Shown piece after piece: positions 25,023-32,365 of a stretch of 64,000 nt of DNA. Below the pieces are notes generated by a model. The model had not been told where the DNA came from. It saw only the letters and a program-made list of their open reading frames with translations, and ran no database searches. The DNA lies in sequence record PZ445436.1. One strand, 5' to 3'. Positions within the stretch are counted from its first letter, which is position 1; every line of letters begins with the position of its first letter. A program made the position numbers and the translations under genes. Source of the stretch: a phage.

Positions 25023-25026
25023 CAAT

Positions 25027-25044
25027 GGGGACCGAAAGGTCCCC
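25027..25044. terminator. Bidirectional terminator between gene 54 (+) and the alt.-3-like ORF (-)
   Basis: GGGGACC-GAAA-GGUCCCC hairpin followed by T-rich tract. Confidence 0.75.
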
Positions 25045-25050
25045 ATATTT

Positions 25051-25341
25051 TTATTTACGGAATGAAATAAAAGCAGCAACTGAAGCAACTAAACTGTCTT
25101 CAATATAAACTTCAATTTTTACCGGAGCTTCTGACTCAAATTTACCTGTTACTACACCTTGGAAAATGCTTTCAGTCTGCTGTGGCTTTGAAAAATTTTC
25201 AGAAGGAAAAATTCCGAACTTTTTATCTGTTCCAAAAATTTTGATAAATTCATCGTAAACTGCTTCATTAAAAGCATTATCAGCAGGAATAACGCCTTCA
25301 ACTACAAGTTCTTGACCTAAAAAGCGCAAAGAAGATTTCAT
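25051..25341 (-). CDS. Hypothetical protein (T4 alt.-3-like position)
   Basis: 96-aa ORF immediately downstream of a T4-type early promoter. Confidence 0.6.
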   Translation of the reverse strand: MKSSLRFLGQELVVEGVIPADNAFNEAVYDEFIKIFGTDKKFGIFPSENFSKPQQTESIFQGVVTGKFESEAPVKIEVYIEDSLVASVAAFISFRK

Positions 25342-25347
25342 TTTGTG

Positions 25348-25402
25348 TTCCTCATGTTATGCCAGTAAGACTACTATAACACAACACGAGGGACTTGTAA
25401 AC
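25348..25402 (-). repeat. 55-bp promoter cassette, copy 1 (near-identical copy at 41198-41252)
   Basis: tcctcatgttatgCcagtaagactactataacacaacacgagggacttgtaaac; one mismatch to copy 2. Confidence 0.9.
25373..25402 (-). promoter_or_regulatory. T4-type early promoter upstream of the alt.-3-like ORF
   Basis: Minus strand GTTTAC-N18-TATAGT with TGT immediately before the -10 (extended -10). Confidence 0.6.
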
Positions 25403-27459
25403 TACATTTTGAACTTTTTAGACATTCCGTTGATGTTAACCAAAGAAGCCAAGATTTGAGAAACTTCGTTTTCCTCTTCTTTTGATTCTTCTACAAGGAA
25501 TTGATTAAATCCAGCCATTGGACGAACTTCACCAGTTTCCATTAGATGGTCGCCATCATATACCGATTCCTCTAATTGTTCAGAAGGAGGAACGATTGTA
25601 CCTTCTATTAGATACTTGTTATAAGCAGTTTCTTTCATAAAGTACGTGCTCACTTTATTAATCTTCAGTAAAATTCCACGCGGTAGAATAACTTCAGCTT
25701 CTGATGGAAATCCTGATAAATGACCTGGAACGATAACTTTGATTCGCTCAGCTCCTTTAATTACCATACCCACGCTAGTTTCAGCATCTTCATTAGCATA
25801 TGTAGAATGACTACCCATATGCATCAAATCTTCTGCATCAACGGAACCTTCTCCTTCGCCAGAAAATACTGCGCCGGAATCATCTAGAGCCATATAGTTT
25901 TTACCGTGCTCACCGAAAATATTTGGTTTAAGCGATGTGGATACGAAGTTCTTGAAATAGAACATTTTGTTTTCAATATTATGACGCAAAGTTTTAAAGG
26001 TAACTTCTTGTCCACGGTAAAGTGTAGTTCCTGGAGGAAGAACTGAACCTTTAGCGAATGCAGAATCAAGCGTCTCAATATGTTTAATAGCTCGTTCCAT
26101 ATATTCTTCACGGGTAGAATCTGGTTTACCCAAAAGGAACGAGTTCATTTCAACATATGAATCTGCACAATAATCTTCAATTACATCAGATTCAGCTTGA
26201 GTTAATCCTTTTGGAGTTACTTCGGTGCTTGCGTATTCATATGCCTGAGCGGCAGATTCATTAATCAATTTATAAATGCCATTCATTACAAATTGAATAA
26301 TAGCTGTCTTTTCATCTGGCGTAGCTTTAGAACCTTTAACCAAATCATTGATAATTTTCTTAATAACATCAAAGCTATTAGAAATATTAATGTCAGCAAG
26401 ATCGCTTAAAATTTTATCAGTTTTATAATCAAAGAATTCTTTATTCTTTAAATATTCTTGAGAACCTTGATATGCTATATCGCTCTGCAACTTGATAGAT
26501 GGATCACGTAAACGTGCATGGGCTAATGCAATATGATTTCGGAAGTTTTCTAGTTCGTAATCGCTAGATTTAAAACGAGAAGCACTTCTCATACCACCAA
26601 TAGCTCCTTTGCTGAAGTTTGAACCAATCTGAATAACGCCAGAGTTCATTGGTCCTTCTGCTTTATACACCGGAACTTTAGATTCAAACTCTTGATATTT
26701 CTTAGCAGCGAAGCTATCACCCTGAAGTGAAGCATCGACAGTAGAATATTGAGCTTGTGCTGCTAATCGACGACTAATTTTAGTTTTCTGAATAACAGCT
26801 TGATCAGTGCGCTTATCATTTTCTAAAGCAATAGAAGCAGCAACAGCGACAGCTTTAGGAACAGCATTACCTGTTTTAACGTCTACATAAACATCACCAA
26901 CCTTTGATTCAACTTTTGTGAATAACTCAGTTGAAATAGGAGGTACACCTGGAATGTCTTCTAAATTGGCATTTTTACGGTAAACCATAATATATGCATA
27001 TTTCTTATCATAGTCCCAGATTTCCTTTAAAAGAACATATCGACCTGCTCCTTTAGTACGTACTAAACGGTCAGCAATAACTTGCATTTGACGAGCAGCG
27101 CCATTTGTTTTACTCTTTAGTACGCGGAATAGGCATGCGTCGATTTTATACTGTTTCATTGTTTGAAGAGCAGTATCAAAAACGGCATTAATGACGCCAA
27201 TTGGATTTCCACCCAAGTTTCTAAGCTTGACTAACGATAATTTCTCGTTGACACCTATCATTACGATATGCATCATTTTGTCGCCTGGCTTAACGTTTTT
27301 ATTCGTATCACCGCCAGAGGTGTATGTACAAAATCTAAATCCAGGAAGAACGCTTTCTTCACCGGCTTGAATAGCAAAAATTTGTGGTATTTTATGCTTA
27401 GGATTTAAGTTAACAACCGGCGCCGAAGCGCCGTCAAATAATTCTGTAATAAGTTCCAT
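25402..27459 (-). CDS. Alt-type ADP-ribosyltransferase paralog (685 aa)
   Basis: N-terminus MELITELFD shared with the upstream Alt; C-terminal ART signature YRGQ / FVSTS / EAEVILPRG (R-S-ExE); ATG 3 nt after the upstream stop with AAGGA SD. Confidence 0.85.
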   Translation of the reverse strand: MELITELFDGASAPVVNLNPKHKIPQIFAIQAGEESVLPGFRFCTYTSGGDTNKNVKPGDKMMHIVMIGVNEKLSLVKLRNLGGNPIGVINAVFDTALQTMKQYKIDACLFRVLKSKTNGAARQMQVIADRLVRTKGAGRYVLLKEIWDYDKKYAYIMVYRKNANLEDIPGVPPISTELFTKVESKVGDVYVDVKTGNAVPKAVAVAASIALENDKRTDQAVIQKTKISRRLAAQAQYSTVDASLQGDSFAAKKYQEFESKVPVYKAEGPMNSGVIQIGSNFSKGAIGGMRSASRFKSSDYELENFRNHIALAHARLRDPSIKLQSDIAYQGSQEYLKNKEFFDYKTDKILSDLADINISNSFDVIKKIINDLVKGSKATPDEKTAIIQFVMNGIYKLINESAAQAYEYASTEVTPKGLTQAESDVIEDYCADSYVEMNSFLLGKPDSTREEYMERAIKHIETLDSAFAKGSVLPPGTTLYRGQEVTFKTLRHNIENKMFYFKNFVSTSLKPNIFGEHGKNYMALDDSGAVFSGEGEGSVDAEDLMHMGSHSTYANEDAETSVGMVIKGAERIKVIVPGHLSGFPSEAEVILPRGILLKINKVSTYFMKETAYNKYLIEGTIVPPSEQLEESVYDGDHLMETGEVRPMAGFNQFLVEESKEEENEVSQILASLVNINGMSKKFKM

Positions 27460-27462
27460 GAT

Positions 27463-29559
27463 TTATCCTTGAACGAACTTGTAAGGCATGTTTGTAATAT
27501 CTATGCAAGACGCAATAATTCCAAGAGATGATTCTACTTTCTGTTTAACGTTTGATGAAACAAATGATGCAAAGTCAACTCTGTCTTCTATTTCAATATC
27601 ACCTGTCATTGCAACCAATTCACCAGTTTCCATTAAATGGTCTCCATCATAGATTACCGATTCGGTGAGCTCTTCCGTGGTCATAACTTCAGCTTGAATG
27701 AGTTTTGTATTATTAGATGTTGTTCCGTCATTATTAGAAGCATCAGTTATTTTATTAACTTTGACCATCAATCCACGCGGTAGAATAACTTCAGCTTCTG
27801 TTGCTATTCCGAGACTTCCTGGATATACAACATTAACTTTATGTGCGCCGTCAATTGCCCATCCTATTTGAACTTTAACGTATTCAGGATTTTCTTTATA
27901 CGCTCTTATTTCGTTTGGATTAATAGTTATTCCTTCTTCATTTTTATCAACTGTCAATTCATTACGAGCTTCTGGTTCTAAAAGACCAATACCAGCATGT
28001 GTAATTCCAAAACGCCCAAAAATGATAGGAGTTAAAGAAGTAGATACAAAATTTCTGAAATAGAACACTTTATTTTTAACTAGCGCTTCGTATATAGGAG
28101 CAGTCATACTTTGAGCACGATAAACTGTAATGCCTTCCGGTATGCGGTCACCATTTTCAAAAGCTGAATCTAAATTATTTATAGCAGATTCAATTTCTTT
28201 TTCACTCATTACATCATATCGTTCTGGATTGTAACGACCTAAAAGAAGATTATTGATGTCAGTATATCCTGAACCACAATACTCTCTAATGCCGCGCTTT
28301 TGTGATGGAGTATATTTAGAACCATCACGGGCAATAGTAATATCAATCATTGGACCTGCACCAATTCCAGAAAAACTATAAATCATTCTTTTGAGGAATT
28401 TAGTTTTTGCTGCGTTCCAGGAATTTTTAGTCATTTCTTCCCAGACTTCATCTGGCTGCCCTTTACGAGTTTTATTATGTTTATCAAGCCAATTATCTTT
28501 ATATTCTTCAAAGAATTTATTAACAGCTGCTGCGTATTTCTCTAAACATTTTATTGAAGTAGTTGGCTCATTTTTTATCGCGTTAAAAATTACATCTTTA
28601 ATTTTTTCGGAAACTTCATCAACCTCACTTTTTGAAAAGAATTTATAGTCATAATGAAGTTCATTCGCAGTTCCTTCGGCAATAATTTTTGCTGCCTTAG
28701 TTTTAGAAGCTAATGAATTAATTCCAAGCTTCATTTCTTCTGCTTCGGGAATTAAAGGAGCGGTAGCAGGTTTATTAAAATTAGCTGCTGTAGATTCATA
28801 CTTCTGGAATAATTCACTTTCAAATCTAGAAGATTCCAATGATTGACTTTGCGCAATTGCTCTACGGGAAATTTTAACTTTAACGATTACAGCTTGGTCA
28901 GAACGTTTATCATTTTCTTGTGCAATAGATGCTGCAATTGCCTCATTTTTAGTTACTTGAGCTCCAGTATCTTTATTGATATAAACATCACCGACCTTCG
29001 ATTCAACTTTAGTAAAGAGCTCGGTACTAATTTCCGGAACCCCTGGAATGTCTTCTAGTGATACATTTTTGCGATGTATAAGAATATATGCATACTTTTT
29101 ATCGTAATCCCAGAGTTCCTTAAGAAGGACGTATCTGCCACCTGAACGACTACGGATAAGTCTATCAGCAATAACTTGAATTTGTCGAGCTTGACCAGCG
29201 GTTTTAGACTTAAGAATACGGAGCATACAGGCATCAATTTTATACTGACGCATTGTTTGTATTGCAACAGTAAAAACTGAATTGATATAATTAATTGGGC
29301 TTGGACCGAGACCTTTTAATTTAGCAATTGAACCTTTGGCAGTTAATGTAAAAGGAACGATATGCATCATTTTATCGCCCATTTTTAAATCGCGATTAGT
29401 ATCACCTCCAGATGTATAGGTACATAAACGAAAGCCTGGTTGTTCAATTGCATCATCAACATGAACTGAAAAAATTTGTGGTATTTTCTTCTTTGGGTTT
29501 AAGTTTGTAATCGGAAGAGTAGTATCTTCGTCAAATAATTCTGTAATGAGTTCCATCAT
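27463..29559 (-). CDS. alt: Alt ADP-ribosyltransferase (698 aa)
   Basis: N-terminus MMELITELFD; ART signature YRAQ / FVSTS / EAEVILPRG; minus-strand TATAAATA 21 nt upstream. Confidence 0.85.
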   Translation of the reverse strand: MMELITELFDEDTTLPITNLNPKKKIPQIFSVHVDDAIEQPGFRLCTYTSGGDTNRDLKMGDKMMHIVPFTLTAKGSIAKLKGLGPSPINYINSVFTVAIQTMRQYKIDACMLRILKSKTAGQARQIQVIADRLIRSRSGGRYVLLKELWDYDKKYAYILIHRKNVSLEDIPGVPEISTELFTKVESKVGDVYINKDTGAQVTKNEAIAASIAQENDKRSDQAVIVKVKISRRAIAQSQSLESSRFESELFQKYESTAANFNKPATAPLIPEAEEMKLGINSLASKTKAAKIIAEGTANELHYDYKFFSKSEVDEVSEKIKDVIFNAIKNEPTTSIKCLEKYAAAVNKFFEEYKDNWLDKHNKTRKGQPDEVWEEMTKNSWNAAKTKFLKRMIYSFSGIGAGPMIDITIARDGSKYTPSQKRGIREYCGSGYTDINNLLLGRYNPERYDVMSEKEIESAINNLDSAFENGDRIPEGITVYRAQSMTAPIYEALVKNKVFYFRNFVSTSLTPIIFGRFGITHAGIGLLEPEARNELTVDKNEEGITINPNEIRAYKENPEYVKVQIGWAIDGAHKVNVVYPGSLGIATEAEVILPRGLMVKVNKITDASNNDGTTSNNTKLIQAEVMTTEELTESVIYDGDHLMETGELVAMTGDIEIEDRVDFASFVSSNVKQKVESSLGIIASCIDITNMPYKFVQG

Positions 29560-29579: not shown

Positions 29580-29587
29580 TATTTATA
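29580..29587 (-). promoter_or_regulatory. Late promoter (TATAAATA on minus strand) for alt
   Basis: Plus TATTTATA 21 nt upstream of the alt start. Confidence 0.6.
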
Positions 29588-29592
29588 AAATT

Positions 29593-29610
29593 AAAGGCCC
29601 GAAGGCCTTT
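29593..29610 (-). terminator. Terminator-like hairpin downstream of the gene 30 operon
   Basis: AAAGGCC-CGAA-GGCCUUU hairpin overlapping the stop of the 62-aa ORF. Confidence 0.55.
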
Positions 29611-29797
29611 AATAATCTATTGGTAAGAGAGTACGATATATTTCAAACTTTGGACCTTTTTCATAAGCATCAAAAGTTTCTGTGAATTTATTATAAGCAT
29701 ATGCATCTATAAATTCAATCATGATTTGTGATACAGAAGTAGAAACATCTCCACCTTCTTTTTGAGCCACGACAATTGTTTCTAAGTAAGCTTTCAT
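29609..29797 (-). CDS. Hypothetical small protein between ligase and alt
   Basis: 62-aa ORF with ATGA overlap to the gene 30 stop. Confidence 0.5.
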   Translation of the reverse strand: MKAYLETIVVAQKEGGDVSTSVSQIMIEFIDAYAYNKFTETFDAYEKGPKFEIYRTLLPIDY

Positions 29798-31257: not shown

Positions 31258-31523
31258 TGTTCATCCTTTAGAGTTTGGTTTACAGCTCTATTATAAATCA
31301 ATTCATCATTAAGCTCAGTCAAAGACCTGTGGTACGTGGTTCTAACTTTATTTCCTTGCATCCAGTGCTTGACGTAAATGAAACCTTGCTCTACACATTT
31401 TTTAAAAATTCGTTCGTCTTTTTGAGCTCGGAATTCTGGATTGCATCTAAAAAATTGATTTACGTGACCGTAATCACGTGTAGTATTACCTTCATTTTCA
31501 TAAATAGTATGAACAACAAACAT
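31254..31523 (-). CDS. Hypothetical protein (30.1-like position)
   Basis: 89-aa ORF translationally coupled to gene 30. Confidence 0.6.
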   Translation of the reverse strand: MFVVHTIYENEGNTTRDYGHVNQFFRCNPEFRAQKDERIFKKCVEQGFIYVKHWMQGNKVRTTYHRSLTELNDELIYNRAVNQTLKDEQ

Positions 31524-32365
31524 TAGAATGCTCCTTGTAAAATATTATCACCACTAGTAGGTCTATTATACAAATACTCTATGCCACCAGGTTTAATATA
31601 GTTCCATGTATGAAATGGATGCACATGATATGGATGTGTATAATATGGATGGTATGGATTTAATCCAGGAGTTCTCCAGGTAGTATTCCAACGAAAAGAA
31701 TTGTTTTTAATCATCTTTTCAATTACATCTTTTATAGCTTTTTCACTATCAAAACTTTCTTTATTTTCCTTCGATGGAAAAAGCTTATTCTCTACATCAT
31801 TCCATGTATAAACTCGCTGTGCAGTTTTTGGAATACTGTCACGCTCCCCTCGAGCCATCCAATAAACAGGAACATTTAATATTTCACTCGCGTGATCGCA
31901 GTGGTGAGCGAGATCGTCAATATAACAAATTACGTTATATTTCTCTTTTGCCTTTTTGAACAACTCTTCTTTTGAAGAATCATGACCACACATCAATACT
32001 TCTGAGAAGGCACCAGGAAAAAGAGCATTCAAATTAAATTGACGATTCAACAGAGCGTCAATAGAATCACCCAATGCTGTAACAGCTACAAAATTATAAT
32101 CTTCTTTTAATTTGTTAATTACACACAGGGCATCTTTATATGGAGACAAGTAACGAATAAAATCTGAACGATTGTATTTTTCAATTAGCTTAACGCCAAG
32201 CTCTTCATCGCAATTAAATAGTTTACCTGGAGAGATAAATTTCTCATCTTGGATCATTTTTAAAATATGTTCCAACGGAAGATTATATTTCTGAGCAAAA
32301 TAAGGAAGACCTGATTGCCAGCTTAAACATACTCCATCAATATCAGTTAAAATAGTAGGCTTCAT
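31523..32365 (-). CDS. HAD-like hydrolase/phosphatase with His/Tyr/Pro-rich C-terminal tail (30.2-like position)
   Basis: 280-aa ORF; N-terminal DIDGV resembling HAD motif I; C-terminal NPYHPYYTHPYHVHPFH. Confidence 0.65.
   Translation of the reverse strand: MKPTILTDIDGVCLSWQSGLPYFAQKYNLPLEHILKMIQDEKFISPGKLFNCDEELGVKLIEKYNRSDFIRYLSPYKDALCVINKLKEDYNFVAVTALGDSIDALLNRQFNLNALFPGAFSEVLMCGHDSSKEELFKKAKEKYNVICYIDDLAHHCDHASEILNVPVYWMARGERDSIPKTAQRVYTWNDVENKLFPSKENKESFDSEKAIKDVIEKMIKNNSFRWNTTWRTPGLNPYHPYYTHPYHVHPFHTWNYIKPGGIEYLYNRPTSGDNILQGAF

Follow-up and report, generated by a model that had tools for sequence, protein, structure and literature searches.

Does a T-even phage bring one ADP-ribosyltransferase (ART) of the Alt type into its host, or two, and if two, do they modify the same proteins? 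The question is raised by a locus in a 64,000-nucleotide stretch of phage DNA (record PZ445436.1; "the window" below means this whole stretch), in which two Alt-family ART genes lie head-to-tail on the minus strand. Both were recognised from the list of open reading frames (ORFs), motif translation, Pfam, PHROG and structure models, with product lengths in amino acids (aa):

27463-29556, minus strand: alt, the upstream ART gene, with a T2-type effector cassette, 697 aa
25402-27459, minus strand: full-length second paralog, named alt.-2 in RB32 and RB51, 685 aa

The answer that we consider probable is that this is the standard T-even two-gene alt cassette, i. e. two old tandem paralogs read as adjacent cistrons from one late promoter, whose products are both packaged, trimmed, ejected and ADP-ribosylating, probably with differing substrates. 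The feature itself is real, and that its genes are functional is almost certain.

An earlier note, made from the sequence alone, had correctly described a head-to-tail pair on the minus strand with a product of 685 aa for the second gene; the 698 aa given for the first is one residue too long. The upstream ORF (27463-29559) contains two in-frame ATGs, and the second (29556), which gives 697 aa, was chosen as the alt start because it fits the annotated T4 start and the numbering of the ITE-6 cleavage site. The placing between ligase and gene 54 was also right, except that two small genes, alt.1 (29609-29797) and alt.-3 (25051-25341), lie there as well. The following signals bear on expression of the pair:

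29580-29587, minus strand: T4-type late promoter box TATAAATA, 23 nt 5' of the alt start codon
28176-28183, minus strand: second exact TATAAATA box, within alt, about 720 nt 5' of the start codon of the downstream gene
27466-27470, minus strand: AAGGA Shine-Dalgarno sequence of the downstream gene, read from the junction sequence

The late promoter and the 3-nt junction behind AAGGA had both been pointed out before, and both stand: the alt stop codon TAA (27465-27463) is followed by a spacer, atc, and then by the ATG of the downstream gene (27459). The two genes are almost certainly co-transcribed. In T4 omics data alt is a late gene (PMC9697503), and we infer that both genes are expressed together late in infection. 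Matches to TATAAATA occur 20 times in the window, compared to 9.3 expected by chance; the box internal to alt may give the downstream gene an additional late start, or may have arisen by chance.

Judged from their sequences, both copies look catalytically intact, and the downstream protein is likely to have enzymatic activity. Both proteins start with MELITELFD, as had been noticed earlier, the propeptide MELITE being encoded at 29556-29539 (upstream) and 27459-27442 (downstream). The ART signatures YRAQ/YRGQ, FVSTS and EAEVILPRG, also listed by the earlier note, are present in the pair, and their coordinates were checked by translation. Catalytic residues are R480 (28119-28117), S505-T-S507 (28044-28036) and E587-A-E589 (27798-27790) in upstream Alt, and R482 (26016-26014), S507-T-S509 (25941-25933) and E587-A-E589 (25701-25693) in the downstream protein. 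The catalytic Arg, the two Ser of S-T-S and both Glu of E-x-E are invariant in an alignment of 31 homologs (42-97% identity), and so is the Glu of the C-terminal cleavage motif described below.

Domain searches gave a consistent picture. The Pfam family ADPrib_exo_Tox (PF03496) matched the upstream protein with 128.9 bits (1.9e-37) and the downstream one with 71.9 bits (5.9e-20), for a gathering score of 23.4 bits, and both proteins matched phrog_802 ("Alt-like RNA polymerase ADP-ribosyltransferase") from end to end. PF26846 (Tevenvirinae_ADPRT) is precomputed on homologs 89-99% identical to the window proteins; a local Pfam scan of the window proteins reported no PF26846 match, and NCBIfam had no match for either. 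With the downstream protein, a profile search returned ART-domain toxins only, and PDB chains searched by sequence gave no hit at E <= 0.01. AlphaFold models of the two proteins (predicted local distance difference test, pLDDT, 75.7 and 75.9) have the same domain order: about 10 disordered residues, an alpha/beta N-terminal domain to residue ~215, an all-helical region to ~470, the ART domain to ~625, and a tail of low confidence. The catalytic domain matches the C3/VIP2-like R-S-E ART fold structurally. By their ADPrib_exo_Tox domain, N-terminal domain, catalytic residues and locus position behind a late promoter, the pair belongs to the Tevenvirinae Alt family.

Is such a pair unusual? The earlier note implied that it is, and described the ORFs next to alt in T4 as short. 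They are: the T4 order is gene 30, alt.1, alt (682 aa), alt.-1 (61 aa), alt.-2 (67 aa) and alt.-3, then gene 54 on the opposite strand. The T4 record traces alt.-1 and alt.-2 to an old duplication that took in the first part of alt. Together, the two align to residues 1 to ~118 of the downstream gene and not to alt, and the PHROG families built from these T4 fragments better match the downstream protein. What T4 has lost can be placed on the window:

25422-27111, minus strand: segment of the downstream gene deleted in T4, 1,690 bp, out of frame

The junction of the deletion in T4 lies in a 9-nt microhomology (CTAAAGAGT / CTAAAAAGT), and the second gene of T4 is broken both by a frameshift and by this deletion. 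Since T4 is without the 1,690 bp and has an out-of-frame junction at a microhomology, we conclude that T4 is the derived state. Its alt.-1 and alt.-2 are a broken 5' remnant, whereas the window has the complete gene.

The tandem pair is a common, annotated state of T-even phages, and not an unusual one. The 4.9-kb region matched 544 phage records, 354 of which cover at least 80% of it. The segment missing from T4 was found in 406 phage records (401 nearly complete, 90-99% identity), and a T4-like deletion junction in 91 only. T2, RB32, RB51 and SH7, together with about 400 other records, carry the second gene; in T2, alt is accompanied by a 685-aa "hypothetical protein" (T2_202), to which the downstream protein is 99-100% identical, and alt.-2 of RB32 is annotated as "Alt-like RNA polymerase ADP-ribosyltransferase". 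Many records, RefSeq included, annotate both genes as Alt-like ADP-ribosyltransferases. According to the earlier note, an identical 685-aa ORF in T4 would have made the pair a matter of ordinary conservation; T4 is without it, but the relatives of T4 amount to ordinary conservation all the same. Diversity was taken from the phage collection and Logan/ENA contigs, and an IMG/VR scan gave 5 loci. Beyond the close relatives, tandem pairs were found in Dhakavirus JS10, with products of 694 and 707 aa, and in another divergent contig, where the products have 698 and 699 aa.

In print, Nolan et al. (2006) reported alt duplicates in T4, RB49 and 44RR (PMC1524935), and a 2026 paper on phage 6phi13 described a pair of Alt-like paralogs that share 43% identity and proposed a wider target range (PMC13600099). 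Because of the annotations in records and these two papers, the observation and its interpretation are already public. Literature searches for a second Alt otherwise returned unrelated papers only, the name alt.-2 being met, among the papers searched, only in Nolan et al.; a paper on injected anti-restriction proteins (PMC12373910) leaves Alt unmentioned, and no proteomic or biochemical data on the product of the second copy turned up.

The T4 remnant could mean that the downstream gene is a decaying duplicate heading to the state found in T4. In favour of this, T4 and about 90 records have no more than a broken remnant, and there are a few clusters of shorter proteins: P0007 (624 aa, 36 members), P0008 (528 aa, 7 members) and P0010 (415 aa, 12 members). 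These proteins are 98-99% identical to the downstream protein, and their length could reflect truncation of the allele, a different choice of start codon or the end of a contig. The main 90% cluster, in contrast, has 772 full-length member sequences, and none of the orthologs examined has a broken ORF, besides the many records that keep the segment. The ratio of non-synonymous to synonymous substitution rates (dN/dS) of the downstream gene is 0.02-0.06 relative to close orthologs and low in every domain (0-0.05 in the ART domain; 9 orthologs compared), and 0.12 relative to an ortholog of 74% identity. Strong purifying selection acts on this gene. Decay is thus already contradicted by the selection analysis, and is very improbable; on the intact ORF and the low dN/dS, the status of pseudogene or remnant was rejected. 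For the upstream gene, dN/dS is 0.04-0.08 within its own allele class.

How far, then, do the two copies differ? Overall identity of the two proteins is 41%, and its distribution bears out what had been noted before, namely similar first ~230 residues and a diverged middle: 67% in residues 1-235, 13% in the middle, 33% in the ART domain and 36% in the tail. Recent gene conversion between the copies was rejected, because synonymous divergence (dS) between their N-terminal domains is ~1.7. When profiles of the two middle regions were compared with each other, no homology emerged (probability 0.95%). In length and in predicted helices the regions are alike, the models having been predicted from one joint alignment and compared by helix pattern. 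The middle regions may be one fold diverged past recognition, or one of them may be a replacement.

Since the helical region and the active-site loops differ most, the two enzymes probably prefer different substrates. Alternatively, both could be packaged and active on largely the same substrates (e. g. the alpha subunit of RNA polymerase), the second copy being there for dosage, as a backup or as a variant-host allele. Both proteins have the arginine-type E-x-E motif of the ADP-ribosylating toxin turn-turn (ARTT) loop, and they agree in domain order and delivery modules; according to a review, T4 Alt is promiscuous (PMC5512222), and T4, without the second copy, has lost nothing obvious. Yet strong purifying selection acts on each copy, in spite of the identities given above for the middle and the ART domain and of saturated dS, and the fact that the pair is kept across genera speaks against simple redundancy. 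A further difference lies four residues ahead of the first catalytic Glu, with Phe in the downstream copy and Ile in the upstream one. We consider largely shared substrates unlikely.

T4 Alt is a scaffolding-core protein, present in ~40 copies per head (PMC9958956), and is cut by the gp21 prohead protease after ITE-6 and after LTE-619, so that 63 C-terminal residues are removed (PMC5694885). The likeness of the leader to the processed N-terminus of T4 Alt, suggested by the earlier note, is borne out in that both window proteins have the same propeptide, MELITE, and to it is added an L-x-E/S motif (the slash marks the cut) at the position of the C-terminal cut of T4. This motif reads ...EELTE632/SVIYDGDHLMETGE in the upstream protein (LTE-632 at 27669-27661) and ...SEQLEE631/SVYDGDHLMETGE in the downstream one (LEE-631 at 25575-25567), so that MELITE and L-x-E/SV(I)YDGDHLMETGE are common to both. 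The predicted mature forms are of 70.2 kDa (upstream) and 69.1 kDa (downstream), and the C-propeptides are acidic, with isoelectric points of 4.2 and 4.6 respectively. Exactly at the predicted cleavage site, the downstream protein's model drops sharply in confidence and the tail turns disordered. From these motifs and models, packaging and processing of both proteins are likely, and so, from the motifs, is injection of the downstream protein.

In the two-enzyme account that we favour, the make-up of each protein is the same. The 6-residue propeptide MELITE, with a gp21 site at its end, is followed by an alpha/beta N-terminal domain that is conserved (PF26846), and this by an all-helical middle that evolves fast (~180-230 residues). 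Then come a C3/VIP2-type R-S-ExE mono-ADP-ribosyltransferase domain and, past the L-x-E/S site, 54-65 residues of acidic C-terminal propeptide. If they behave as T4 Alt does, the two proteins would become part of the scaffolding core, lose both their ends to gp21, stay in the head and be ejected with the DNA, and would then ADP-ribosylate arginines on host proteins.

A downstream protein made late but not injected, which acts in the producing cell or is a non-enzymatic part of the core or scaffold, seems to us improbable. Such a protein would agree with the lack of virion detection in the literature, packaging being argued solely from motif conservation. It would not be expected to share its propeptide with Alt, to keep both gp21 motifs and the conserved YDGDHLMETGE tail, or to have invariant catalytic residues. 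Moreover, in two metagenomic contigs (L009, 4001-6055, and L010, 4001-6061) the place between alt.1 and alt.-3 is taken by one chimeric ART gene, in which an Alt-type N-terminal domain is joined to a middle, ART domain and tail of the downstream type. The downstream effector is here the only ART of the locus, an arrangement that makes sense only if it is delivered like Alt, and that counts against a non-injected product.

Several points nevertheless weigh against two injected enzymes with different substrates. No direct evidence of the downstream protein in virions was found in the literature. SH7 is the sole two-copy phage for which a virion proteome turned up, and in this shallow data set (13 structural proteins plus the ADP-ribosylase) only the upstream copy was seen, with 2 peptides. 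The targeting signals of Alt are without experimental definition, and the conserved termini are therefore suggestive only. The similarity of helix patterns between the two middle regions may be inflated by the joint alignment. Finally, since T4 and ~90 other records are without it, the second gene is dispensable on laboratory hosts, and some phages have only the single chimeric gene.

The upstream gene has a history of its own. Compared to T4 Alt, the upstream protein is 99% identical in the N-terminal domain and 94% in the C-terminal tail, and differs in the middle (32%) and the ART domain (60%); for the downstream protein, identity to T4 Alt is lower still, at 67% (N-terminal domain), 10% (middle), 32% (ART domain) and 37% (tail). 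Relative to T2 Alt, all parts of the upstream protein, middle and ART domain as well as N-terminal domain and tail, are 97-100% identical. The T2-type effector cassette occupies about residues 238-632. Synonymous divergence from T4 alt rises from ~0.1 in the flanks to 1.2-1.4 for the middle and the ART domain, which means that recombination within conserved flanks has swapped the effector cassette. As the cassette is so deeply diverged, T4 Alt biochemistry may not transfer to the upstream enzyme. SH7 has a T4-type Alt followed by the same downstream paralog, and the chimeric genes of the two contigs point to unequal recombination between tandem copies, and suggest that the N-terminal domain is an interchangeable delivery module.

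We therefore put forward, tentatively and with a little less than even confidence, a more general scheme: the alt locus would be a two-slot effector cassette with a shared chassis (propeptide, N-terminal domain, C-propeptide), in which at least three anciently diverged alleles (T4-, T2- and Alt.-2-type) reassort via the flanks, and the slot-2 enzyme could be a second injected ART with host targets of its own. By analogy with Alt, these might include defence or toxin-antitoxin proteins. T4 Alt acts on MazF, a toxin-antitoxin protein. The slot-2 enzyme was never studied, because T4 is without the slot-2 gene.

The remaining features of the locus are small genes and sites on either side of the pair:

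29609-29797, minus strand: alt.1, 62 aa, between the ligase gene and alt; Pfam Phage_blade ("Phage blade protein", PF24647, 7.5e-29)
29593-29610, minus strand: G+C-rich hairpin aaaggcc-ttcg-ggccttt, then aatttt, read from the sequence; overlaps the alt.1 stop codon
25373-25401, minus strand: early-promoter-like site, TTTACA, 17 nt, TATAGT, with TG, immediately 3' of the stop codon of the downstream gene and ahead of alt.-3
25051-25341, minus strand: alt.-3, 96 aa, Pfam DUF5498, final gene of the minus-strand block
25025-25046, no strand assigned: bidirectional intrinsic terminator between alt.-3 and gene 54, from the terminator scan

The alt.1 gene overlaps the ligase stop codon by 4 nt. The hairpin behind it is a probable terminator of early or middle transcripts coming from upstream; it was not among the hits of the consensus terminator scan. 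T4 mutants in which Alt.-3 is extended at its C-terminus evade the CmdTAC defence by blocking degradation of CmdA (PMC11618068). Further away, at the position of gene 30.2, a 280-aa ORF (31523-32365, minus strand) has a His/Pro/Tyr-rich terminal tail (...NPYHPYYTHPYHVHPFHTWNY...).

As a genome feature, the tandem pair is ordinary, annotated and already discussed in print; its interest lies in what the second enzyme may modify. Nearly everything known of how injected phage ADP-ribosyltransferases work comes from T4, which lost the second gene, and most sequenced T4 relatives, T2 included, keep it under strong purifying selection. A conserved, probably injected host-modifying enzyme thus remains uncharacterised, a useful reminder for work on ADP-ribosylation in host takeover and phage defence. 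If the slot-2 enzyme is indeed injected and has its own targets, most natural T-even phages inject an effector that is absent from the model phage.

Among known systems, the closest to the downstream gene are its orthologs, alt.-2 of RB32 and RB51 and T2_202 of T2, with 685 aa, the same position and junction, and nothing material different. The upstream gene shares with that of T4 Alt (NP_049811, a packaged NAD+--arginine ADP-ribosyltransferase) its locus, promoter position, R-S-ExE residues and both gp21 cleavage motifs. The C3/VIP2/iota/Vis-type R-S-E mono-ADP-ribosyltransferase toxins are delivered by secretion or a binding component, whereas Alt makes use of the phage capsid and DNA ejection, and the N-terminal and helical domains of Alt have no counterpart in them. 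Finally, polymorphic-toxin-like modular effectors resemble the Alt proteins in that a conserved N-terminal domain and tail surround deeply diverged, reassorting effector cassettes, with a T4-type or T2-type cassette in slot 1, an Alt.-2-type one in slot 2, or chimeras of the Alt N-terminal domain with Alt.-2. Unlike polymorphic toxins, the Alt locus is without immunity genes or spare cassette arrays, and the likeness is an analogy of architecture only.

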